From positions 1-61,376 of IMG/VR virus record IMGVR_UViG_3300001847_000619: a stretch of 61,376 nt of DNA. One strand, given 5' to 3'. The notes beneath the pieces were generated by a model that saw nothing but the letters and a program-made list of their open reading frames with translations, was not told the DNA's origin and ran no database searches. The translations under genes and the position numbers were made by a program. Source of the DNA: a virus (lineage: Duplodnaviria; Caudoviricetes). Shown here piece by piece: positions 26,632-39,030 of the stretch. The stretch's first letter is position 1, and every line of letters begins with the position of its first letter.

Positions 26632-29600
26632 ATGGCAGAAGAATTAGAGCAAATACAAGAAGAAAATATTGAGCCAACTCAAGAACAAGATATTCAAGGG
26701 GAACAAGTAGAGCAAACGCAACAAGAAACACAACAACAACCTCCATCAAAGGCAAGTGTATTATACAATAATTTATTAAAAGACGGATATACCAAGCAAA
26801 ATCTTGGAGATGAACAATCTTTTATAAAAAACGTATCAACAAAAGAAGGGGCAGCTAAAATACATTCTGTATTGTTATCGGATGGGTATACAGAAGCAAA
26901 TCTTGGGAATGTAAATGATTTTACAAATAACCTTGTGGCACAACCTCCCGTTCCAAAACAAGCTCCTTTATATACAGCAAAAGGATTTATAGAACAAGAA
27001 AAGAAAAAAGCAGAAGAACAATTACTTCCCGTTATACCACAAAAAAAGGCAGAAGTTAAACCATCAGCTCCCCAAAGACCATCAATAACTCAATATGATA
27101 GAAAAGAAGATGAAAATGGATTTATGAGTGCATTGGGAACAGCTACAGATTATGCTAAACATCTTTATAATAAAATATTAGATGGCGTTGGATATGTTGC
27201 TTCTGGAGCTTTAGAAACGCAAGCAGCTACAACATCTGCATTAATAAATGCTGCACAACAAATAACTGGGGATAAAGGATTTGATTCGCAAGAATTTCAA
27301 AATCACATAAATAATGAGATAGTTCCAAAAATAAAAGAAAAGATAAAATTAGCAGAAGCTACAGTACCAAAAGAATCACAAAAAAAATTTGATGATAGTT
27401 TTTTATTATCATCAATATCAGGATTGGCAGAATTTGCACCAGCAATGCCATTAGGAGTAGCAGGAATGTTGGCTGCTGGAACTGATATGGGCATTCAAGC
27501 TATAAACAATAGTGAAGTTGGTAAAAAATTACCAGAAAGCATTAAATCTATATTTGGAATAACTACAGGTACAGCTACAGCCCTTCTTACTGAATTAAAA
27601 TTAGATAAGATATTTGGAAAGCAAACCGAAAAAGTAGCATCCAAATTAGCAGTAGAAACTCTAGATGGATTATTGAAAAAATCCACAGAGCCAATAACTG
27701 CCGATGCTTATAATGCTGCTCTTCAAAACGCTGCAAAATCATTAAAGGAAAAAGTTGTATCTTCTGGAGGAAAAATGTTAAAAGGCGGTGCTATAGGTTC
27801 TTTATTTGGTGGGTTAAACGAATCAACAAATTTATTAGCTGAAGATATTACAAATAGATTAACGAATCAACAAGTATTTGAACCAACTAGTTTTGGTAAA
27901 GCATGGTCAAGAATATCAAAAGGAACTGCATCAATGGGTGTAGGTGGTATTATATTAGGAGGAGCTCATATTCCCTTCTCTAAAACAGAAAATTATATAA
28001 AAAACAAAGTATCAGAAGCTAAAACCATAGATGATATAAATAATCTCAAGAGGGAAGTAACGCAACAAGTACAAGGAGGAGATGTTTCAATAAACGATGC
28101 AAATAGAGTACTTGATTTAATTGACCATTATACAAAAATAAATAGCTCAATTCCAGTAGATGTTCCCAACAAATCACAAGTAATAGACAAAATAAAACAA
28201 AGAGATGATTTACATCAACAAGCCAATGATATATTAACAGAAGCTCAAAATTTAGACCCTGCATTTCAAGAACAAAAAATAAAAGAAGCTCAAACATTAA
28301 CAAATGCAGCAGACGATATACATAATCAAATAGCAGGTAAACCTGTTTATAGAATAGGAGAACAAGAAGTAGATAGAGATACATTTAACAATTATTTAGA
28401 TAGCGAAGCAGCAAAAGGCAATAAAGATGAATTATATGTAGAGAATGATGACGAAATGAGTTCTAAGTTAGAGAAACAAGGGGGAAAAACTACTATAGAT
28501 GAAGAATTAGGGACTCCTGTTACTACAAATAAAGTAGAAGAAGTTCCCGTTCCTACGACAAAAGAAAAACCACAAGAACTAATAAATACTACCATATTTG
28601 ATGAAAATATGATTCCAATATCAGATGAAAACGAATCATTAGCTAATAAGGTAATAGACAATGCTATTTCTAAATCAAAATCCTTAGAAAATTTTCATTC
28701 AAAACTAAGCCAATTAGGATATAATTTTAGAAGTCAAACAATTGAAAGTTTAAACAAATTTGTTCAAGATAGGATTGATGGCAAAACAAATCAATCATTT
28801 GAAGATTGGAGAAATCAAAATAAAGAAACAACAAAAACAAAAGAAAATGATACACAAAACATCACAGGGATACCAAGTGTTATCGGAGAAGGGGAAACCA
28901 CTATCAAAGCCAAACCTATCGAAGGCGGAGGCACACAAGAGATTAGCGGTGGTGGAGTACTTCAAGAAAATGTCCCCAGCAGACAAGGCGAAATGGCAGA
29001 AAAGCCACAAGAAGTAAAGCAAGGGGAAGAAACAAAAAATGAATATATAAAAAGAAAACAATCTGAAATATTATCTGAATTAAAAAACAAATATCCAACG
29101 CTAATAACTGGAAATGATATAAACCCAATGGTGGCACAACCAAGGTATATGTCAAATACAGATATAGAATTAGCTAAAAAGTTTTTAGACCCTACAATAT
29201 TAGAAACTCAATACAATCTAGAAAAATCAGAACTTCCCAAAACAAAAGAAAAAATACCTGCAAAAGAAAAAGTATTTTCTAAAGCATCAGTAAATAGAAC
29301 AGAAGCTAAAAAAGTATATAATCATGTTTATTCATTAGATGACCCAACAGATGCAAGGGGAATAGCCAAAAAATGGCTTTCATTAGGGGGTAAGGTATCT
29401 ATAGATTCTTTTGCAGATGAGGTTACTGGATTAATAAAAAGTAGGGGTCAAGCTAAAATAATAATACCTAAAGAGGCAAGAGAAAGCGAGTTTACGGATT
29501 CTAAATCTTCCCTTACAGTAAGCAAAGCAGCTCATGACCTATGGGATAATCTACCAGATGAACTAAAAGATTCAATATCAGATTCAGATATAAAAGATGC

Positions 29601-32600
29601 ATTAATAGAAGAAATGCGTTCTTACAATAAAAGAGTAGATATAGCTAAAGATTTTATATTAGAATATGACCCAGAAGAAGCAGTAAAAAGATTTTACGAA
29701 AAAGATATCGAAGAAAACAAAGCAGCTTATGAAGCAGAAAGAAAAGCAGTAGAAGATTGGTATAATGAGCAAGCTGATGAGAATTTCGATTTAATGCAAG
29801 ACGATGAATTTATCAACCAATTAATTAAAGAATATGAACAAGAATATCCAGAACAAGTTAAGGGAAGTACTGAAGAAATTACCACAGGAGAAAAGGGAAG
29901 AGGCGTTAAAGAGGCTATCGGTGGAGAGGCTATTCAAGAAGAAGGAGCAAAGCCAACAAAAGAAGTAGAAGTTCCCCTTGCTGAAAATCCATTCGAAAAA
30001 ACCCCTAAAACACAAGTAGCAAGAGATAAATACTTCAAGCAAACATTTGGAGAAAACGCAGATAAAGCAGAAGAAATTTATAATAAATATAAAGATACTA
30101 ATGACTTTGAAGCAATGCAAAAGGAAATGCAAGGGGAAGTGCCAAAAGCCGAAAAACCTGTGGCAGAACCTCCCGTTCCTCCAAAAGAAGAAAAACCAAT
30201 AGAAACACCTTCTGAAGAAGAAAAGTGGACTGCAATAAGAAAAGCTAAATTAGAAGAAATAAAAGGAGTTAAAGAGATGTTTGAAAAAGAAACATCCAAA
30301 CCTTGGACTAAAATACAACAAGAAGCATTAGAAGATGTAGCTAAAGAGTTTCCAAAGAAAACATTAAACGATGCTATAAGAACTAAAGTAGAAAGGCTTG
30401 CTGCTAAATACGATGCAAAAGAAGATTATAACCCTACTGCAAAAGATTTAGCTGTAATACAAGAGTTTAAAAGGCAAACAGAAAGCAAAATAAATGCTGC
30501 AAAAGAAGAACTACAATCAGATAATGATATAGAAAGATTTGCTGCTATAGCTGAAATGACAAGCTATGAAAATGATTTATTAAATGCAAGCAAAGCTTTA
30601 TTTACACAAGAAGCAGGTAGGGCATTTGGATTTAGGCAATCGGAAAGCATCAAGGATGAAAATGCAGGGCTTCAAATAAGGAGAATGCAATTAATGAGAG
30701 CTAATGGAATGGAGAAGCTTTCAGATGCTGATAATAAATTTTTAGAATCTCAATGGGAAAAAGAAAAAGAGTTGATGAAAAAAGAACAAGAGATTCGTGA
30801 GCAATCACTAAAAGAAGCATTTGATAATGAAGTCGCTAAACTACAAGAGGAGTATGAAAATAAACTAAAAGAAAAAAAGATATCAGCTACAGATAAAAAA
30901 GCATCAGATAAGCTAAGGAAATTTGCTGAAAAAATAAGGAATAGCAAAACCCTGGATATGCTTGGACTTGGAACTCCTATTGAAGGAGAAGCAAAAGGTA
31001 TATCTTTTAATACAAAAGAAGCTTTAGCAAAAGTTATAGAAAAAATGGCTGATGGAATGGATAAAGTTGAAGCCATAGCAAAAGTGCTAAAAGAATATGG
31101 AGTAGACAAATCAAAAGAGTTTTCTGATTTAGTAGATAAAGCTTTAATAAAAATAGCAAAACCTGATACAGATGAAGTTTTATCTAAAATAAAAGATTTA
31201 GCAAGCAAAACAGACGAAAAAAATGTAACTAATGAAATGGTTGCTAAAGGTCTTATTAGAGATTATGTAAATTCTTTTATTGGGGAAGTTGATAAAAGTA
31301 AAGTATTAAACGAAGCAGCTACAAAACTTAAGGAAGTTCTTCCCGATTTGGATAGAAAAACATTAAGAAATGCATTTTTAAAAGAAGGCGAATTTAAACA
31401 ACCTACAAAAAAATCATTAAACGAAGCTCTTAATCAAGCAAAAAGAGATTTATTAAAAATAGAAAAAGAACAAAGCAAAAAAGAAGCAACAGAAGATGAG
31501 CTTCAAAAGAAAAAATTAGAGCAAGAAAAAGAAAAAGCACAAAAAAGCATAAGGGATTATCAAAGAAGATTAGATAATGAAAAATATGAAAAAGAAGAAC
31601 CAATAGTGCTTAAAAAACAAGATGCAGAGCTAATAAAAATAAATAAAGAGAAAAATCAAATTAAATCCGAATTTGATAAAAAAAGAAAAGAATTAGAAGA
31701 AAAGAATAAGCATTGGTTACAAAGAGCAGCAGATTTTGTTAGGTCATCATATATAGCATCATTAATAGGAAATCCTGTTACATTAGCAAAAGTTGCTTAT
31801 ATGTCTATTATAAGACCAACTTCCGAAATAACAAGAAAAGTTATATTAGGTAATTTGTTTAAAACCATTGCTCCTAATTATTATGAAGCTGCATTAAAAG
31901 GAGGAGAAAGTAAAAGTTTAAAAAGTATTGAAGCTGGACTTAATGCATATTTCAGACAGATGGGAGAAAAAAAGATGCAAGAAAAGTTTCAAAAAGCAAG
32001 CAATGAATTTGACCAAGCAGCTAAAAAATATTACGATGCAGTAAATGCTAAAGCTGATGAAAAAACATTATCCAAGTTGAAAAAAGATATGGATAATAAG
32101 AGGTTGGCTGCTATGGGGAATATTGTTTATCAATTTATTGGGGGGAGCTCTATAAAAGATGCGTTACAATCATTAGTAAATAGAGCAAATGAAATAGAAA
32201 GGCAATTTGGTAAAACTGAAACAGAAAGCATAAAAGATGGCAACGCATTAGATAAATTAAATTATATTTTAGGGTTTATAGGTCGTTCTCATAGTGCTGC
32301 TAAAACATTTTCAGGAAGATTTAGCTATGCAGCAAGCTTTATGGCTAGATTAGAAGGTGCTGCAAGAGATGGAAGCATATCAGACCCAAACAGAATATTA
32401 GAAATAGCACATGAAAGTTACATAGATTGGGAAAGAGGTAAATATCAACAAGATAATTGGGTAACTAAGAAATGGAACGATGTAATAAAATCAATAAAAG
32501 AAAAAACAGCAGGAAAAGGAGAATGGAGTAAATACGATAAGGCACTAGAAGCATTGCTTAAGACAGATGTAGCTATAACAAGAGTTCCCGTAAATATAAT

Positions 32601-33702
32601 TCATGAAGCTGTAACAGAATATACATTAGGAGCATTTAGAGCACCAATATTAGCCTATAGGGAATATGCAAAAGCTAAAGGCAAGGCAATAGAAGAAGGA
32701 TATAGCAAAACATTAGATAGTAAAGAATTTAAAGCAAGAGTTGGCGAATTGATATCTAAAATGGATGCAGAACAAGCGGCAAAAATATATAGATTATTTA
32801 CAAAAGGAGGATTAGGTGCTGGTCTTTATGGTCTTGCATTAACTACTGGATTAGTTCAATTTGGAGTCTTCCCTCACAAAGGACAAAAGAAAAAGAAAGA
32901 AGAAATATATCTAAAAGAAGGAGAATTAAATCCAGGTCAAATAATGTTTGGTAATGATAGGCTTGGCGAAACAGCATCTAAATTAATAGAACATACACCT
33001 GCCTTGTGGACTACATTTATGGGATTAGGGATAGCCAAAATATATGCAGATGATGTTAAAGAAGGGAAGATGTCATCTCAAGCAGCATGGGATGCAGCAT
33101 ATACGCATATGCAAATAATAGAATCATCTATACCTCAAACAAAAGTAGTTAGCCCATTAGAAGTGTTAAAAGGTGCAGGAAAATCTTTTGCAGGTAAGCT
33201 AAGTGATTATGGTATTCTTGATAATTATATTGACAGTAAAGGAGCATTTATAAATCAAGAAAAGAAAAAACTTGAAATGACGACATCTGAAGTATCTCGC
33301 TTAAAAGATTATAAAGTAGAACCACCAAGATTAGGAGTAAGAAGTCAAAATAAAATAGAAGTAGATGCAAAACATCCAAAAGTTGGATTATCAAAAGATG
33401 GCAAGCCTTATGCTTATATGAATGATTTTGAATGGGATAAATTCAATGAATATAGAAAAAAATATATAAACGATGCTTTGAAAGAAATATATGATGCTGC
33501 TGATGCAGGAGATATTAAATTAAATCAAGAAAATTTAACAGATGCGTTAACTAGAATAACTAAACAAGCAACATCTATAGCTAAAAGTAAATTAATTGAT
33601 GAGGGATTTTTATCTGAAAAGAATAAGGAAGATGAGGAAGATGAAAATATAGAATCTATAAACACAATTATAAAAGATATATACAAAGAAGCTAAAGAGT
33701 AA
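26632..33702 (+). CDS. giant internal virion / ejection protein
   Basis: 2356 aa; Gly/Ala membrane-like segments near aa 250-450, long coiled coils; no catalytic motif recognised. Confidence 0.65.
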   Translation: MAEELEQIQEENIEPTQEQDIQGEQVEQTQQETQQQPPSKASVLYNNLLKDGYTKQNLGDEQSFIKNVSTKEGAAKIHSVLLSDGYTEANLGNVNDFTNNLVAQPPVPKQAPLYTAKGFIEQEKKKAEEQLLPVIPQKKAEVKPSAPQRPSITQYDRKEDENGFMSALGTATDYAKHLYNKILDGVGYVASGALETQAATTSALINAAQQITGDKGFDSQEFQNHINNEIVPKIKEKIKLAEATVPKESQKKFDDSFLLSSISGLAEFAPAMPLGVAGMLAAGTDMGIQAINNSEVGKKLPESIKSIFGITTGTATALLTELKLDKIFGKQTEKVASKLAVETLDGLLKKSTEPITADAYNAALQNAAKSLKEKVVSSGGKMLKGGAIGSLFGGLNESTNLLAEDITNRLTNQQVFEPTSFGKAWSRISKGTASMGVGGIILGGAHIPFSKTENYIKNKVSEAKTIDDINNLKREVTQQVQGGDVSINDANRVLDLIDHYTKINSSIPVDVPNKSQVIDKIKQRDDLHQQANDILTEAQNLDPAFQEQKIKEAQTLTNAADDIHNQIAGKPVYRIGEQEVDRDTFNNYLDSEAAKGNKDELYVENDDEMSSKLEKQGGKTTIDEELGTPVTTNKVEEVPVPTTKEKPQELINTTIFDENMIPISDENESLANKVIDNAISKSKSLENFHSKLSQLGYNFRSQTIESLNKFVQDRIDGKTNQSFEDWRNQNKETTKTKENDTQNITGIPSVIGEGETTIKAKPIEGGGTQEISGGGVLQENVPSRQGEMAEKPQEVKQGEETKNEYIKRKQSEILSELKNKYPTLITGNDINPMVAQPRYMSNTDIELAKKFLDPTILETQYNLEKSELPKTKEKIPAKEKVFSKASVNRTEAKKVYNHVYSLDDPTDARGIAKKWLSLGGKVSIDSFADEVTGLIKSRGQAKIIIPKEARESEFTDSKSSLTVSKAAHDLWDNLPDELKDSISDSDIKDALIEEMRSYNKRVDIAKDFILEYDPEEAVKRFYEKDIEENKAAYEAERKAVEDWYNEQADENFDLMQDDEFINQLIKEYEQEYPEQVKGSTEEITTGEKGRGVKEAIGGEAIQEEGAKPTKEVEVPLAENPFEKTPKTQVARDKYFKQTFGENADKAEEIYNKYKDTNDFEAMQKEMQGEVPKAEKPVAEPPVPPKEEKPIETPSEEEKWTAIRKAKLEEIKGVKEMFEKETSKPWTKIQQEALEDVAKEFPKKTLNDAIRTKVERLAAKYDAKEDYNPTAKDLAVIQEFKRQTESKINAAKEELQSDNDIERFAAIAEMTSYENDLLNASKALFTQEAGRAFGFRQSESIKDENAGLQIRRMQLMRANGMEKLSDADNKFLESQWEKEKELMKKEQEIREQSLKEAFDNEVAKLQEEYENKLKEKKISATDKKASDKLRKFAEKIRNSKTLDMLGLGTPIEGEAKGISFNTKEALAKVIEKMADGMDKVEAIAKVLKEYGVDKSKEFSDLVDKALIKIAKPDTDEVLSKIKDLASKTDEKNVTNEMVAKGLIRDYVNSFIGEVDKSKVLNEAATKLKEVLPDLDRKTLRNAFLKEGEFKQPTKKSLNEALNQAKRDLLKIEKEQSKKEATEDELQKKKLEQEKEKAQKSIRDYQRRLDNEKYEKEEPIVLKKQDAELIKINKEKNQIKSEFDKKRKELEEKNKHWLQRAADFVRSSYIASLIGNPVTLAKVAYMSIIRPTSEITRKVILGNLFKTIAPNYYEAALKGGESKSLKSIEAGLNAYFRQMGEKKMQEKFQKASNEFDQAAKKYYDAVNAKADEKTLSKLKKDMDNKRLAAMGNIVYQFIGGSSIKDALQSLVNRANEIERQFGKTETESIKDGNALDKLNYILGFIGRSHSAAKTFSGRFSYAASFMARLEGAARDGSISDPNRILEIAHESYIDWERGKYQQDNWVTKKWNDVIKSIKEKTAGKGEWSKYDKALEALLKTDVAITRVPVNIIHEAVTEYTLGAFRAPILAYREYAKAKGKAIEEGYSKTLDSKEFKARVGELISKMDAEQAAKIYRLFTKGGLGAGLYGLALTTGLVQFGVFPHKGQKKKKEEIYLKEGELNPGQIMFGNDRLGETASKLIEHTPALWTTFMGLGIAKIYADDVKEGKMSSQAAWDAAYTHMQIIESSIPQTKVVSPLEVLKGAGKSFAGKLSDYGILDNYIDSKGAFINQEKKKLEMTTSEVSRLKDYKVEPPRLGVRSQNKIEVDAKHPKVGLSKDGKPYAYMNDFEWDKFNEYRKKYINDALKEIYDAADAGDIKLNQENLTDALTRITKQATSIAKSKLIDEGFLSEKNKEDEEDENIESINTIIKDIYKEAKE
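28847..29017 (+). CDS. nested +1-frame 56-aa basic protein MIHKTSQGYQVLSEKGKPLSKPNLSKAEAHKRLAVVEYFKK...
   Basis: A-rich leader, protein-like sequence, shares motif with 29834-29968. Confidence 0.65.
   Translation: MIHKTSQGYQVLSEKGKPLSKPNLSKAEAHKRLAVVEYFKKMSPADKAKWQKSHKK
29834..29968 (+). CDS. nested +1-frame 44-aa basic protein MNKNIQNKLREVLKKLPQEKREEALKRLSVERLFKKKEQSQQKK
   Basis: manual translation; EAxKRLxVxxxFKK motif shared with 28847-29017. Confidence 0.55.
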   Translation: MNKNIQNKLREVLKKLPQEKREEALKRLSVERLFKKKEQSQQKK

Positions 33703-34603: not shown

Positions 34604-36682
34604 ATGGGGGATAAAATAGAAATATATCATACAATAATAGAACTTCCCGAACAGCCATCAATAGAAAATATTGAAAACTGGGGAACAGAAAATCCATTAG
34701 AGCAATATTGGAGAAGAAGGGAATTGCCATCTTATTTAGAGCAAGTTGAATATGATAAAGATGGAAATGCTTTATTAGATAGCAAACAAAGAGAATATGC
34801 TTTAGAAGAAGTTAGAAGATGCAAAGATGGATTTTGGTTTATGAATAGAGGCATTCCTACTTATATAACAGGGAAAAATTACTTTTATTTACAATGGTGG
34901 AAACTTGAAGATGATATATATCCCGATTATAGAGATTTAGATAGAAGATATTTTCTTTATTTGAATTACTGGGAAAATACTCCTTGGTGTTTAGGAATAA
35001 TGATAGGTAAAAAAAGAAGGCAAGGGCAAACATCTATAGGCACATCTAATTTAGTATATGAATGCGTTTTCTTTAAAAATAGTTTTTGTGGATTAACAAG
35101 CAAAACACAAATAGATGCCAAAAATACATTTACAAATCTTGTTGCTTTTGGATATAGACAATTGCCAGTATTTTTAAAACCAAAGCAACTTAACAATAAA
35201 GATTCTGTAAGCGAATTGGTATTTGCCCATAAATCAGTAGAAGTAAAAGGGTCAAAAGGGAGTGCTATAGATTCAGATACAGGACACAGGTCTAAAGTCG
35301 ATTATCGTGCTCCTGGTAAAAACGCCTATGATTCGGGTAGACTTAGTCGGGGACTCTTTGATGAGGGTGGAAAATTCCCCCCAGAAGTTCCCTTCTCTGA
35401 ATTTATATCTATTGTAAGCAAAACGATGGTAAAAGGGGTTAAAAGAGTTGGTTTTATGGAACTGCCATCAACTATGAACGATATGACTAAGGGAGGTGGA
35501 GAGCAATATAAATTATTGTGGGATAAAGCAGACCATAGTAATGGTAGAACTCCTAGTAGACTTGTAAGATATTTTAGCCCAGCTTATGATGGATTTATGG
35601 GTTTTATAGATAAGTACGGGATTAGTGTTATAAATGAACCTACAGAAGAACAATACAAATATTTAGTAGAAAATTTTCTTGGTCTTGGGGATTTGACAGA
35701 GGAAGACGTGAAGTTAGGAGCAAAGCAATATTTGATTAATAAAAGAGTTGGATTAGAAGGAACATTGCTTGAGGAAGAGATTCGTATGAATCCTTTTGAT
35801 GAGAAAGAAATGTTTCAATCTGCTATTGCATCTTCCCTTTACAACTCATTTAAACTAAATCAACAATTAGATTTTTTAAGTTATAATGAACTAACAGAAA
35901 GAGGTAATTTAGTATGGGAAGATGGACATGAAATTTATAAAGAAGAACTTAATAGTCAAGGGGAACTCATAGGAATAAAACCAAGTAAAGTAATATGGAT
36001 TCCAAATGAAAATGGAAAGTACGAAAAAGTAAAAGGATGGAAACCAAAAGAATCTAATAATGTATATGAAAGCAATGGCTCATTTTCCCCTGGCGGCAAA
36101 TATGCAATAAGAATAGGATGCGACCCTTTTAAATACGATAAGACAAAAGACAATAGAAAGTCAAATTGTGCAGCTTATGCATATCAATTAGAAGATTTAT
36201 CTGATGAAAATTCAGAATTTAATGATATGTTTGTGATGAAATATGTAGATAGACCATTAACTACTGATTTACAATATGAATCAGTATTAAAAATGGCTTG
36301 GTATTGTGGCACACAAGTTCTTTTTGAAAGAAACGTAGAAGGATGGAAAAAGTACTTTAATTATAATAAATGTGGAGGATTCTTAATGTGGTTGCCAAAA
36401 GAAGTAGAACCTGGCATATATACTGATGGGGCAGGTAAGACCACACAAATGATATGCGACTTTACGGAAGCGTACATTGAAAAGAACATACACAAAGTAT
36501 ATTTTAAATCCCTTATAGAAGAAACAGCAGGATGGCTTGGATTCGAGGTGGGAAATACTCAAAAGTATGATGAGGCGATGGCAAGTGGATTTGCTTTAAT
36601 AGCAGCAAAACAAAAAAGATACATAAAAGAAGAACAAAGAAAGAAAAACGTTGAATTTATAATACCTTATACAATAGCTTAA
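34604..36682 (+). CDS. terminase large subunit
   Basis: YITG..YFYLQW, K.RRQGQT Walker A, FDEGGK Walker B, GCDPF nuclease, Y.DRP, ERN, YDEAMASG. Confidence 0.92.
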   Translation: MGDKIEIYHTIIELPEQPSIENIENWGTENPLEQYWRRRELPSYLEQVEYDKDGNALLDSKQREYALEEVRRCKDGFWFMNRGIPTYITGKNYFYLQWWKLEDDIYPDYRDLDRRYFLYLNYWENTPWCLGIMIGKKRRQGQTSIGTSNLVYECVFFKNSFCGLTSKTQIDAKNTFTNLVAFGYRQLPVFLKPKQLNNKDSVSELVFAHKSVEVKGSKGSAIDSDTGHRSKVDYRAPGKNAYDSGRLSRGLFDEGGKFPPEVPFSEFISIVSKTMVKGVKRVGFMELPSTMNDMTKGGGEQYKLLWDKADHSNGRTPSRLVRYFSPAYDGFMGFIDKYGISVINEPTEEQYKYLVENFLGLGDLTEEDVKLGAKQYLINKRVGLEGTLLEEEIRMNPFDEKEMFQSAIASSLYNSFKLNQQLDFLSYNELTERGNLVWEDGHEIYKEELNSQGELIGIKPSKVIWIPNENGKYEKVKGWKPKESNNVYESNGSFSPGGKYAIRIGCDPFKYDKTKDNRKSNCAAYAYQLEDLSDENSEFNDMFVMKYVDRPLTTDLQYESVLKMAWYCGTQVLFERNVEGWKKYFNYNKCGGFLMWLPKEVEPGIYTDGAGKTTQMICDFTEAYIEKNIHKVYFKSLIEETAGWLGFEVGNTQKYDEAMASGFALIAAKQKRYIKEEQRKKNVEFIIPYTIA

Positions 36683-36684
36683 AT

Positions 36685-39030
36685 ATGAGATATACTCAAA
36701 TGGGAATTGGAAGTTCCTACCCTTATCCAGACCACAATATAGCACCTGAAAAGAAAGATGCTGAATGGTGTATGCAATATGCAAAAGCGGTATATTACGA
36801 TTTTACATATGCGTATCCAAAGGGAATATTTGCTAACAATAATGGCGACTATGAAAAGTTCAGAATGTATGCTTTGGGCAAACAGCCAATATCCCCATAT
36901 AAAAAATTATTAGGCGTTGATGCACAAACAAATCATACTTGGTTATCTGTAGATTGGACTGCTAGAGCAGTTGTTAGTTCTTATAGAGATAAGGCTATAA
37001 GTAGATTAATGAAAGATGACTTTGGATTGATTTGTACTCCAATAGATATGTTGGCTAAAGATGAAAGAGAAGATTATTATAATCAATTAAGAATTAAATT
37101 GATTATGAGGGAACAATTACAAAAGCAAAATCCAGAGCTTGCAAATCATCCTGCATTAGCATTAAATCCAAATGAACCTTCTGATTTAGAAGAGTTAGAA
37201 ATGAGATTGGATATGGATGAGCAATTCATAAGAAGTAAAGATGCAGAACAAGCAATAGAATTAGCATTTTATCAAAATAACTACAAAGCACAAAGAAGGC
37301 AAATATTTGAAGATTTGTTTGATTATGGAGTAGCAGGATATAAGGATTGGTTAGGAGATGACAATAAGGTTTATTATAGAAGAGTTAATCCAGAATGTGT
37401 AGTTACAAGCTATTGTAAAAATGGAACATTTAGTGATATTGTTCATGCTGGGGAAGTCATAGATGTTTCTCTTGTTGAATTGGGAACAATAAAAGATAAA
37501 GATGGTAATGCAATGTTTACCGATGAAGAATTGCAAGAATTTGCAGGTTCTATTGCAGGTAAATTTGGAAATCCTGCTCAATTAGGAAAAGGAACTGGAT
37601 GGTTTAAAAGCTACGATAGATTTAAGTGTAAGGTTTTAGATTTAGAGTTTTATACTTATAATGAAAACGTATATAGAGAAGCAGTAGATGAAAATGGGAA
37701 TGTTGATTTTAGAAAAGCTGATTTTAATAGAGGGAAGAAGTCAGAAAAGTATAAAAGAAAAAGAATCCAATATGTATATAAATGCAAGTGGATTATAGGA
37801 ACAGATAAGTGTTACGACTGGGGGATGGCTTATGACCAAAAAAGAAGTAATGACCCAAAGAAAAAAACAAAAGCGAGATTATCATATAATTTCTGTGCTT
37901 ATAACTTCTATGAAATGAAGGGGCAATCATATATGGAACGACTTATTCCCTACATTGATGATTATCAATTAACCATTCTTAAAATACAAAACTTTAAAAA
38001 TAGAGCTGTACCTTCTGGATGGTGGATAGACCTTGACTCATTAGAGAAAGTAGCACTTAATAAAGGGGGTGCTAATATGCAACCAAAAGAGTTATTACAA
38101 ATGTTCTTTGAAACAGGTATACTAGTGGGAAGAAGTGTAACAGAAGCAGGAGAGCCGCAATCTCCCAACTGGAAACCCGTAATACCCATTGAAAATACAG
38201 CAGCAAGCGAATTAGCTATGTTTTATCAGGACTTAGTTAACAGCATTTCTATGATAGAAAGAATAACAGGATACAATGATGTTACTTCTGGAAATCCAAA
38301 TCCAAAAACTCTTGTTCCTGGATATCAAATGGCAGAACAAAGTACAAGTGATGCTCTTTATCCAATGGCATTTGCAGAGGAAGATATAACACTTAGACTT
38401 GCAGAAGATTGCCTTTGCAGAATGCAACAAGGAATCAAAAAAGGAGGAATGGTATCAGGCTATGCTCCTGCATTAAATTCTAACACTCTTAAATTTATGG
38501 AGATAGCTCCAGATATTGCACTTAGAGATTATGGCATTGAATTGGAAAGAAGAACAAGTAATGATGAAAAAGCATGGCTATTACAACAAATGCAAGTTGA
38601 TATTCAAAATGGGTTATTAGACACATCTGATGCCGTATTGCTTGTGAACACAAAGAATGTTAAACAAGCTCAAATGATATGGGCACACAGAGTGAAAAAA
38701 GCTAAAGAAAAAATACAACAACAAGAATTAGAAAAGATTCAAGCCAATAATGAAGGGCAGCAACAAACTGCAATGGCAGCACAGCAAATGCAACAGCAAC
38801 AAATGCAAATGCAGTATCAGTTTGAATTGCAAAAAGAACAAATGCGTATTCAAGCAGAATTAGAAAAAGAAAGGATGAAAATAGAATCTATGGAAAGAAT
38901 AGCAATGCAAAATAGTCAAACTAAAATTGCTGTGGCTCAAGAAACAGGAGATTCTAAATTAAATTCTCACATGATAATGGGTAATTCATCTATAGAAAAA
39001 CAAAAAATCGCAAATCAAAAAACAAAATAA
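36685..39030 (+). CDS. portal protein
   Basis: 781 aa after TerL; DL..YGVA..K, RVNP, ITGYND...G, Gln-rich C-terminal barrel. Confidence 0.88.
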   Translation: MRYTQMGIGSSYPYPDHNIAPEKKDAEWCMQYAKAVYYDFTYAYPKGIFANNNGDYEKFRMYALGKQPISPYKKLLGVDAQTNHTWLSVDWTARAVVSSYRDKAISRLMKDDFGLICTPIDMLAKDEREDYYNQLRIKLIMREQLQKQNPELANHPALALNPNEPSDLEELEMRLDMDEQFIRSKDAEQAIELAFYQNNYKAQRRQIFEDLFDYGVAGYKDWLGDDNKVYYRRVNPECVVTSYCKNGTFSDIVHAGEVIDVSLVELGTIKDKDGNAMFTDEELQEFAGSIAGKFGNPAQLGKGTGWFKSYDRFKCKVLDLEFYTYNENVYREAVDENGNVDFRKADFNRGKKSEKYKRKRIQYVYKCKWIIGTDKCYDWGMAYDQKRSNDPKKKTKARLSYNFCAYNFYEMKGQSYMERLIPYIDDYQLTILKIQNFKNRAVPSGWWIDLDSLEKVALNKGGANMQPKELLQMFFETGILVGRSVTEAGEPQSPNWKPVIPIENTAASELAMFYQDLVNSISMIERITGYNDVTSGNPNPKTLVPGYQMAEQSTSDALYPMAFAEEDITLRLAEDCLCRMQQGIKKGGMVSGYAPALNSNTLKFMEIAPDIALRDYGIELERRTSNDEKAWLLQQMQVDIQNGLLDTSDAVLLVNTKNVKQAQMIWAHRVKKAKEKIQQQELEKIQANNEGQQQTAMAAQQMQQQQMQMQYQFELQKEQMRIQAELEKERMKIESMERIAMQNSQTKIAVAQETGDSKLNSHMIMGNSSIEKQKIANQKTK

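Follow-up and report, generated by a model that had tools for sequence, protein, structure and literature searches.

Two small open reading frames within a giant phage gene

The window analyzed here, a stretch of 61,376 nucleotides from a tailed-phage record (IMGVR_UViG_3300001847_000619), carries a giant gene that is neighbored by genes for virion structural proteins, the large terminase subunit (TerL), and the portal. A preliminary description of this DNA had reported two small open reading frames, here termed ORF1 and ORF2, that lie inside the giant gene and are read in its +1 frame, and their coordinates, ATG start codons, and frame were all confirmed; both are wholly contained in the host gene (Table 1). 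Upstream of its ATG, the ORF1 frame is open as far as a TTG at position 28760, and ORF2 starts directly after the host motif LIKEYE. Over both ORFs, the host frame encodes Gly/Glu-rich linkers between modules, and a host-frame motif, PIEGxGTQE..GGGVLQE, recurs among the giant homologues.

Table 1. Features of the giant gene, its two nested ORFs, and the terminase gene (positions in the window)
Feature	Position	Strand	Details
Host giant gene	26632..33702	+	2356 aa; from the ORF list and translation; within the virion-gene block
+1-frame TAA bounding the ORF1 frame upstream	28751..28753	+	+1 open span begins at 28754
A-rich leader without Shine-Dalgarno sequence	28817..28846	+	Directly 5' of the ORF1 ATG
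Nested gene ORF1	28847..29017	+	+1 frame; ATG; 56 aa; net charge about +9
ORF1 motif copy	28928..28969	+	Reads EAHKRLAVVEYFKK; within the predicted main helix
+1-frame TAA upstream of ORF2	29822..29824	+	Three codons before the ORF2 ATG; +1 open span begins at 29825
Nested gene ORF2	29834..29968	+	+1 frame; ATG; 44 aa; net charge about +9
ORF2 motif copy	29900..29941	+	Reads EALKRLSVERLFKK
Terminase large subunit gene	34604..36682	+	phrog_6681, E = 6.4e-91; two genes downstream of the giant gene

Judged from its homologues, the host protein is related to the multi-module phage proteins of the "polyvalent" type and may work like one, but a Pfam scan of the window's own giant protein (P0003) found no domain above the cut-off. 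At least one precomputed Pfam domain is present in 6 of its 19 giant homologues (PF18760 in three; PF18763, PF00583, and PF13489 in one each). When the whole gene was scanned, variation peaked at the third position of the host codons; the two nested ORFs and certain poorly aligned stretches were the exceptions.

Substitution patterns over the nested ORFs

For ORF1, the window was compared with 17 loci retrieved through a host-frame pattern. In all 18 rows, the +1 frame is open, with the ATG at the same aligned codon and the stop 44–58 codons after it. The host-frame sequence just upstream of ORF1 could not be aligned between loci, and the small ORF is therefore the conserved unit. Among the 40 ungapped codons of 16 distinct DNA sequences, the numbers of variable columns at the three nested codon positions are 21, 15, and 35, and the third positions that vary thus number 35/40 in the nested frame versus 15/40 in the host frame. 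In this set, pN/pS is 0.31 for the nested frame versus 1.90 for the host frame, and the mean amino-acid identities are 77% and 53%, respectively. ORF2 is kept with the same ATG in seven other loci (L015, L020–L024, and L026), and its evidence base is these eight loci only. Wherever the host LIKxYE anchor is present, the ATG stands at the same place after it (8/8). Here, pN/pS is 0.39 in the nested frame versus 1.25 in the host frame; the control domain immediately upstream of ORF2 has a host-frame value of 0.48. A related DNA contig also carries A>G variants at positions 29869 and 29884, both of which are synonymous in ORF2 and change Thr to Ala in the host frame.

Overlap-aware estimates, obtained with an OLGenie-style custom script that is uncorrected for multiple hits and shared ancestry, gave a nested dNN/dNS of 0.31 (bootstrap 0.20–0.45) and a host dNN/dSN of 1.47 (interval 1.21–2.11) for ORF1 (58 distinct sequences), and corresponding values of 0.38 (0.29–0.50) and 1.01 for ORF2; these values are rough because the NS class is near saturation (0.75–0.87). 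The earlier proposal that the hidden frame is under selection is thus upheld by comparison across genomes. The host frame is open across all 26 overlaps (ORF1, 18/18; ORF2, 8/8). Codon choices that create host stops, i.e., T-ending nested codons before AA, AG, or GA, are avoided over the overlaps (ORF1, 0/211 versus 12/271 elsewhere; ORF2, 0/86 versus 17/96 elsewhere), and the amino-acid identity of the host frame is unconstrained there.

A 14-residue motif shared by ORF1 and ORF2

The two motif copies are identical at 9 of 14 residues, with four of the differing codons synonymous in the nested frame, and the host-frame readings of the same sites, GGTQEISGGGVLQEN and RGVKEAIGGEAIQEE, are less similar (6/15 identical), which confirms the earlier description. 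However, the 14 nucleotide differences between the copies are spread evenly over the nested codon positions (5/4/5); the comparison of these paralogues therefore carries no frame-specific signal, and the synonymous differences between the two ORFs fail as an argument for selection. An identity of 9/14 was reached in 5 of 5000 composition-preserving shuffles of both peptides. The kinship of ORF1 and ORF2 suggested by their sequences is weak, with E = 0.33 for the ORF1 family profile against ORF2 (among 4437 six-frame segments) and an hhalign probability of 11% (P = 0.0027) between the two families.

Nested and stand-alone relatives

At E ≤ 1e-3, the ORF1 profile matched 1376 clusters, of which 212 also passed E ≤ 1e-10 (best, 1.7e-23); the proteins in the matched clusters are mostly 45–100 aa long. 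The family consensus of about 45 aa reads MIxK..GYxVxS..GKxL..P..(S/T)K..A.KRL.QVE.FK, and relatives retain the peptide down to roughly 50% identity; the best BFVD match is a 46-aa protein with 49% identity (TM 0.68/0.81). We then considered the 80 best viral loci, which were retrieved by the nested-frame pattern, whose conservation in this set is by construction; the parser demanded a starting Met, and 72 of the 80 were parsed and 8 were not. ORF1 is nested in 51 of the 80, inside ORFs of at least 1031 codons and always in the same relative frame, and it stands alone in 21 of the 72 parsed loci, where it begins at the same Met as the nested copies. Aeromonas phage 1233 carries a stand-alone copy (L027, 2980–3132), which is unannotated. 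With these clusters and stand-alone copies, the resemblance of ORF1 to free-standing small phage proteins, proposed in the preliminary description, proved correct. A TerL-like ORF lies within 1 kb of 13 of the 21 stand-alone loci, and 8 of 10 large neighbors tested are TerL, from three PHROG families. No TerL was found near any of the 51 nested copies in the flanks retrieved, which span roughly 3 kb to either side, so that only family membership connects the nested copies to packaging. The peptide tree is poorly resolved.

Eight called small proteins match the ORF2 profile, and a viral scan with these proteins for a stand-alone DNA context of ORF2 returned only the same nested loci. A third nested small-protein family was seen in three of the loci (L012, L013, and L015).

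Predicted fold and candidate function

ORF1 is predicted to fold into short beta strands followed by two helices (AF2 pLDDT 88.9). Its best PDB fold matches, which are not significant, include 3bid_B and 6q2z, which we take to be DUF1508/UPF0339-type proteins. DUF1508/YegP and DUF2188, small beta-hairpin-plus-helix proteins, are similar to ORF1 in size and in the order of secondary-structure elements, and one ORF1-family member weakly matches DUF2188 (E = 0.037). Assignment of ORF1 to either family was rejected, with Foldseek E-values of 1.6–3.3, a TM of about 0.4, and Pfam scores below the gathering cut-off. Matches in Pfam, PHROG, NCBIfam, or PDB gave no function for the nested proteins. We tentatively suggest that they may act in nucleic-acid binding, DNA packaging, or head assembly, although the odds are against any such specific role. 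The chaperone, inhibitor, or DNA-condensing roles put forward in the preliminary description are likewise hypothetical.

Discussion

Start and stop are conserved, purifying selection acts in the nested frame, and the host frame is kept coding, as is expected of same-strand nested genes; on these comparative grounds, ORF1 and ORF2 are very probably real protein-coding genes under selection. Of the findings that the preliminary description named as refuting its proposal, the two open to sequence comparison went the other way: free-standing homologues occur, and relatives keep the +1 frame unbroken. Each nested gene would yield a small, strongly basic protein. The A-rich leaders noted earlier were confirmed: A makes up 80% (ORF1) and 55% (ORF2) of the 20 nt upstream of the ATG. 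In the window, Shine-Dalgarno-like motifs occur at only 2 of 44 gene starts (mean upstream A fraction, 0.50), and the leaders therefore fit the normal starts of this phage. We infer with moderate confidence that ribosomes most likely initiate internally at the ATG of each nested ORF on the giant-gene mRNA, independently of a Shine-Dalgarno sequence. The RNA-library signal, a single 164-nt contig over 29770–29933, may be DNA carry-over and reflects the giant-gene transcript only.

It had also been suggested that the +1 ORFs are alternative C-termini, whereby programmed ribosomal frameshifting would give truncated giant proteins with basic tails. The location of the nested ORFs at module ends agrees with this idea, as does a database protein, P0033 (395 aa), that is read first in the host frame and then in that of ORF1; however, P0033 is the predicted protein of one record and therefore reflects a DNA indel or a misassembly rather than ribosomal slippage. 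Programmed frameshifting also implies that the tail has no independent start and can be reached from the frame upstream, whereas the ORF1 ATG is kept in 18/18 rows, a +1 stop lies 0–34 codons upstream of it (immediately before the ATG in L035 and L087), a +1 stop precedes the ORF2 ATG by three codons in all eight loci, and the stand-alone relatives of ORF1 start at the same Met. Frameshifted C-termini are thus disfavored and, in our view, very unlikely. A similarly low probability attaches to the view that the ORFs are unexpressed relics, engulfed when neighboring genes fused, with recent common ancestry mimicking selection. The nested products are known from sequence alone and the peptide tree is poorly resolved, which would suit relics, but nested-synonymous sites are near saturation (0.75–0.87 differences per site) while the peptide retains a mean identity of 77%, and none of the 58 distinct ORF1 sequences or the 8 ORF2 loci has a broken frame.

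Conservation could instead act on the nucleic acid itself, whether it carries a packaging signal, forms an RNA structure, or serves as a recombination hot spot that shuffles modules. The conserved unit does lie where modules join, preceded by unrelated host sequence, and its stand-alone relatives adjoin TerL, beside which pac or cos sites are often located. Against this, the variation shows the codon periodicity of the nested frame, whose amino acids are retained through synonymous change, a protein fold is confidently predicted by AF2, and the peptide persists in relatives down to roughly 50% identity; a nucleic-acid signal is therefore highly improbable as the cause. The least probable account, to which we give almost no weight, is that the frames are open by chance, since a purine-rich, hydrophobic-poor linker rarely makes +1 stops, and that the motif belongs to a linker or protease site of the host. 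The recurrence of the host-frame motif in giant homologues and the even spread of differences between the two motif copies in the window would agree with chance frames; the substitutions across genomes, by contrast, track the nested frame (third positions, 35/40 versus 15/40), the host dN/dS is at least 1 over the nested ORFs, and stand-alone ORF1 relatives occur without a surrounding host gene.

Taken as nested genes, ORF1 and ORF2 make the overlaps unequally dual-coding, with selection on amino-acid sequence in the nested frame and on openness alone in the host frame. Because free-standing relatives exist and the host frame lacks amino-acid constraint, the small ORF1 gene is probably the older one, with the giant gene reading through it; from sequence comparison, the linker over ORF1 looks like the newcomer. 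The term "overprinted" in the preliminary description therefore probably has the direction wrong for ORF1. In a broader reading, to which we give somewhat below even odds, a sizeable group of uncultivated freshwater phages would have enlarged their giant multi-module genes for virion proteins by reading across older small genes located between the modules, and every inter-module linker would also encode a small basic protein that still functions. At least three families (ORF1, ORF2, and the third family) would belong here, as cofactors linked to terminase or head assembly and expressed from the giant protein's mRNA.

Among the closest known arrangements is that of phage lambda, in which Rz1, a small gene with its own start, lies wholly inside Rz in the +1 frame of the same strand, and both products are made; the Rz1 product, a secreted lipoprotein, forms a pair with Rz during lysis. 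ORF1 and ORF2 are likewise small +1-frame genes with their own start codons inside a larger phage gene. In contrast to Rz1, however, their products are predicted to be soluble and basic without a signal sequence, the host is a giant protein of the virion block, two nested genes occur in the window plus a third family in relatives, and ORF1 has free-standing relatives beside TerL. Small viruses also overprint their genes, as phiX174 does with B in A and E in D. The window shares with them two-frame DNA in which one frame is ordered and conserved and the other is of low complexity; in classical overprinting, the nested protein is the new and disordered one, whereas in this case the host linker supplies the disordered, unconstrained frame and ORF1 belongs to a conserved family that has stand-alone members. 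Overprinted genes of small viruses are the subject of general reviews (PMC8227390 and PMC3494269, in the parts available). Phages and conjugative elements encode polyvalent proteins (Iyer et al., 2017; PMC5512222), which resemble the relatives of the host gene; those relatives are 1500–3600 aa long, built of swappable modules, including ART-PolyVal (PF18760) and DdrB-like ParB (PF18763), and encoded among virion genes. The available part of that article does not mention "overlapping," "frameshift," or "linker," and we found no earlier description of these nested genes in the literature.

Nested genes of this type are invisible in annotation because gene callers forbid long overlaps on the same strand. 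Among the 80 best viral contigs examined, at least 51 hold a nested ORF1, and the ORF1 family comprises over a thousand clusters without a name or an assigned function. The usual direction of overprinting would be reversed here: the small gene is the conserved one, and the linker of the giant gene around it would be newer and is unconstrained. The case suggests how giant polyvalent genes are assembled, and it marks a widespread small protein that adjoins the terminase as a candidate factor in DNA packaging or head assembly.

Results

Setting of the nested reading frames

Two small open reading frames (ORFs), ORF1 and ORF2, lie in the +1 frame of a giant gene in a block of virion-protein genes; the features discussed here are listed in the table. 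The record is approximately 80% complete, with a base composition of 39% A and 30% T, and virion structural genes occupy the flank of the giant gene opposite to the portal gene. The giant protein had no significant match in Pfam or PHROG, and neither the gene nor its protein matched the INPHARED phage collection. Using residues 650-1250 of the giant protein as the query, we recovered 19 giant relatives (1513-3610 aa). Six of them carry differing inserted Pfam domains (PF18760 ART-PolyVal in three; PF18763, PF00583, and PF13489 in one each), a mixture in the style of the "polyvalent proteins" (Iyer et al., 2017, PMC5512222). In the giant homologues P0006-P0013, short motifs (e.g., AELPKQ and EVPVP) are repeated where modules meet. 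A search for marks of a mobile cassette found a sole repeat pair flanking the ORF1 region, a 22-nt direct repeat (82% identical; 28638-28659 and 29169-29190), which may be due to chance.

Features of the giant gene region and of related loci (L numbers are loci fetched from other contigs)
Feature	Coordinates	Strand	Remarks
Giant gene	26632-33702	+	2356-aa product; ORF listing and translation
ORF1	28847-29017	+	56 aa; +1 frame open upstream to TTG at 28760
ORF2	29834-29968	+	44 aa; +1 frame
Third +1 ORF of the window	30047-30202	+	51 aa; TTG start; host position 3 dominant, [4,4,19] and [3,4,20]
Large terminase (TerL) gene	34604-36682		Same flank as portal; PHROG-based neighbour survey
Portal gene	36685-39030		Flank of giant gene shared with TerL
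Third +1 nested ORF family	L012 5434-5589; L013 923-1078; L015 5620-5793		In relatives; absent from the window

ORF1 is conserved in the hidden frame

The preliminary description stated that ORF1 and ORF2 share a 14-residue motif, that four codon pairs within it differ synonymously in the +1 frame, and that the host frame matches less well; re-reading the DNA reproduced all three statements exactly. The nucleotide differences between the two copies are spread evenly over codon positions (5/4/5), and giant relatives retain a host-frame motif, PIEGxGTQE..GGGVLQE, at the ORF1 position. Given this recurrence and the even spread, our initial expectation was that the motif served as a linker in the host frame and that purine-rich codons had produced the +1 ORFs incidentally. 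The DNA of relatives overturned the reading of the ORF1 motif as a host-frame linker or protease site, because their +1 frame is open and their substitutions follow the nested frame.

These relatives were fetched by using host-frame patterns and comprised nine viral and eight metagenome loci. In 18 of 18 rows, counting the window, the +1 frame is open, with an ATG at the identical aligned codon and a stop 44-58 codons on, and the +1 peptide is visibly better preserved than the host peptide. Over 40 ungapped codons of 16 distinct DNA sequences, the variable columns number 21/15/35 by nested codon position, so that variation is lowest at the nested second position, which is the host third position; Nei-Gojobori pN/pS is 0.31 for the nested frame versus 1.90 for the host frame, and mean amino-acid identity is 77% versus 53%. 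Plain dN/dS misleads in overlapping genes, according to two method papers (OLGenie, PMC7531306; Wei & Zhang, PMC4316641), and we therefore scored each change by its effect on both frames. This scoring, applied to 58 distinct nested sequences, gave a dNN/dNS of 0.31 for the nested frame (bootstrap 0.20-0.45) and a dNN/dSN of 1.47 for the host frame (1.21-2.11), both being raw values uncorrected for multiple hits and shared ancestry; the near-saturated NS class would, if anything, understate the nested-frame constraint. These ratios, together with the unbroken +1 frame, bear out the selection on the hidden frame that had been proposed for ORF1. The host-frame sequence directly 5' of ORF1 is unrelated among the loci, indicating that the conserved unit is the small ORF at a module junction.

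ORF2 shows the same pattern in fewer loci

The sole ortholog of ORF2 was initially that of L015, and scans of its region with a two-sequence alignment returned nothing in viral or genome contigs; a wider alignment matched seven viral loci. One locus without the host anchor LIKxYE (L025) was excluded. In all eight anchored loci, the anchor is followed by an ATG at the identical place, with a +1 stop three codons 5', and the ORF spans 36-78 codons and encodes a recognisably conserved peptide. The pN/pS is 0.39 for the nested frame versus 1.25 for the host frame, and the host domain just 5' of ORF2 shows an ordinary pattern (host pN/pS 0.48). The overlap-aware scoring used for ORF1 gave 0.38 (0.29-0.50) for the nested frame and 1.01 (0.61-1.61) for the host frame, so the proposed hidden-frame selection held for ORF2 as well. 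The ORF2 profile matched eight called small proteins (38-82 aa), and a scan with these proteins returned only contigs already known as nested. At three of the loci (L023, L024, and L026), the giant ORF terminates approximately 100-130 nt past ORF2 (ends 3295, 3277, and 3244), so that this junction ends the gene in some phages and forms an internal linker in others.

Nearly all of the window stretch is also present in DNA runs from two other studies (label: freshwater metagenome), as long contig pieces with 0-1 differences. A related contig from run X8 has substitutions at 29869 and 29884; each leaves the ORF2 amino acid unchanged and replaces Thr with Ala in the host frame. Runs sharing few words with the window (X7-X9) were not used for habitat inference.

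The host frame stays open, and the reversed pattern is local

The host frame is open across 26 of 26 overlaps, the ORFs concerned being 521 to >2300 codons long. Nested T-ending codons before AA, AG, or GA, which would create host stops, are absent from ORF1 (0/211 vs. 12/271 elsewhere, Fisher p = 0.0016) and from ORF2 (0/86 vs. 17/96 elsewhere, p = 1e-5), the rows in both comparisons being non-independent. A scan that slid along the entire giant gene and compared it with every relative fetched found host position 3 to be the most variable nearly everywhere, with clear reversals at 28747-28971 (e.g., [51,19,15]) and 29827-29916; weaker flags coincided with stretches of poor alignment and low coverage. 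The window's third +1 ORF was rejected as a nested gene, since its substitutions track the host frame; with host position 3 dominant, it looks like a chance ORF.

The relatives L012, L013, and L015 contain a further nested +1 family, whose peptide (approximately 49-51 aa, ..QLEKKLVELYxLxQKFPKDKKLKKxYNQVL..PLPF) is more conserved than the host frame above it. The corresponding host motif, GEKVSGxVQPxSEVPEGQKIxEGxQPS.., also occurs in the database proteins P0005-P0007, P0011, P0012, P0014, and P0016.

ORF1 belongs to a family of small phage proteins

When 1.84 billion representatives were searched with a profile built from 14 nested ORF1 peptides, 1376 clusters matched at E <= 1e-3, 212 of them at E <= 1e-10. 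Most of these proteins are 45-100 aa long, a few are tandem or fused (P0101 with MORN repeats, P0143 with a DnaJ-like stretch), and every named member is a "hypothetical protein"; the Atlas likewise returned only clusters of that name. Scanning viral contigs yielded at least 279 relatives among the 599 pattern matches listed. When the best 80 loci were parsed, 51 proved to be nested, always +1 to a host ORF of at least 1031 codons, 21 were stand-alone, and the remaining eight fell outside the parser. The likeness of ORF1 to stand-alone small phage proteins, proposed in the preliminary description, was thereby substantiated.

No gene adjacent to the stand-alone copies is related to the giant proteins, and the copy in L047 is overlapped solely by a 164-codon antisense ORF. 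Eight of ten large neighbours tested are TerL proteins of three different PHROG families. A TerL-like ORF lies within 1 kb of 13 of the 21 stand-alone loci, usually abutting and on the same strand, a count that is a lower bound because it is BLAST-based. INPHARED contained one record for ORF1-like peptides: the cultured Aeromonas phage 1233 (OR359403.1; L027 2980-3132) carries an unannotated stand-alone copy in an intergenic gap, where PHROG searches of the neighbours were uninformative.

Neither nested peptide had a significant match in Pfam or PHROGs or any match in NCBIfam, and a PDB sequence search gave nothing at E <= 0.1. The AlphaFold2 model of ORF1, built on the family alignment, is confident (pLDDT 88.9) and has short strands at residues 2-4 and 9-12, followed by helices at 26-41 and 44-54. 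The fold had no PDB match below E = 1; in BFVD it matched uncharacterised small phage proteins (best 49% identity, TM 0.68/0.81). It also appeared there, as leads only (E 0.1-1.4), as a terminal part of longer proteins from uncultured phages, annotated as cytidyltransferase-like or XkdF/prohead-protease-like. In P0033 (395 aa), the N-terminal frame of the giant gene continues into the ORF1 frame (..KVYEYD then RKKKQGYQVLS..), probably because the record contains a one-base indel or assembly error.

Of 5000 shuffles, 5 reached the nine of 14 motif identities seen between ORF1 and ORF2. With the ORF1 profile, ORF2 scored E = 0.33, and hhalign of the two families gave 11% probability; kinship is thus weakly suggested, and we treat them as two families with a common basic helix motif.

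Discussion

Same-strand nested genes are known in phages, for example Rz/Rz1 and those of phiX174. In the main text of openly available articles, we found no account of linkers in giant or polyvalent phage proteins that contain nested small genes and no description of the ORF1 family, full-text matches being general overlapping-gene work or nothing. In the polyvalent-protein paper (Iyer et al., 2017, PMC5512222), the words "overlapping," "frameshift," and "linker" occur 0 times.

How the nested frames are read bears on an earlier suggestion that they supply alternative C-termini by frameshifting. Conservation of the ATG, the presence of a +1 stop 0-34 codons 5' of it, and the start of the stand-alone relatives at the identical Met all argue for independent initiation over frameshifting, which is thus unlikely. 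In the window, the central base of both nested ATGs falls on a third codon position of the host frame. A Shine-Dalgarno (SD)-like motif precedes only 2 of 44 gene starts in the window, the leaders being A-rich and A/T-rich, and the starts of the nested ORFs resemble the others in being A-rich and without SD. Independent initiation of each nested ORF at its own ATG, SD-less like the other starts of this phage, is most likely. The leaders suggest a host with SD-independent initiation; SD-less, A-rich starts are typical of Bacteroidota-type hosts, and we take Bacteroidota as an example of such a possible host. RNA-library run X7 yielded one identical 164-nt contig over 29770-29933, along with short A-rich pieces with 4-5 mismatches, neither of which is a sign of a separate small mRNA or of translation.

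In a tree of 68 peptides, built on few columns, nesting needs 9 changes versus 16.9 for shuffled labels, and it may have had a single origin. Free-standing relatives of ORF1 exist, and its overlying host frame is of low complexity and shows no constraint; on these grounds we infer that the small gene is probably the older of the two and that the giant gene came to be read through it. Each of the two window peptides has a net charge of approximately +9, as counted from sequence, and this charge and the terminase neighbourhood of the stand-alone relatives point to a putative role in binding nucleic acid, in packaging, or in head assembly.
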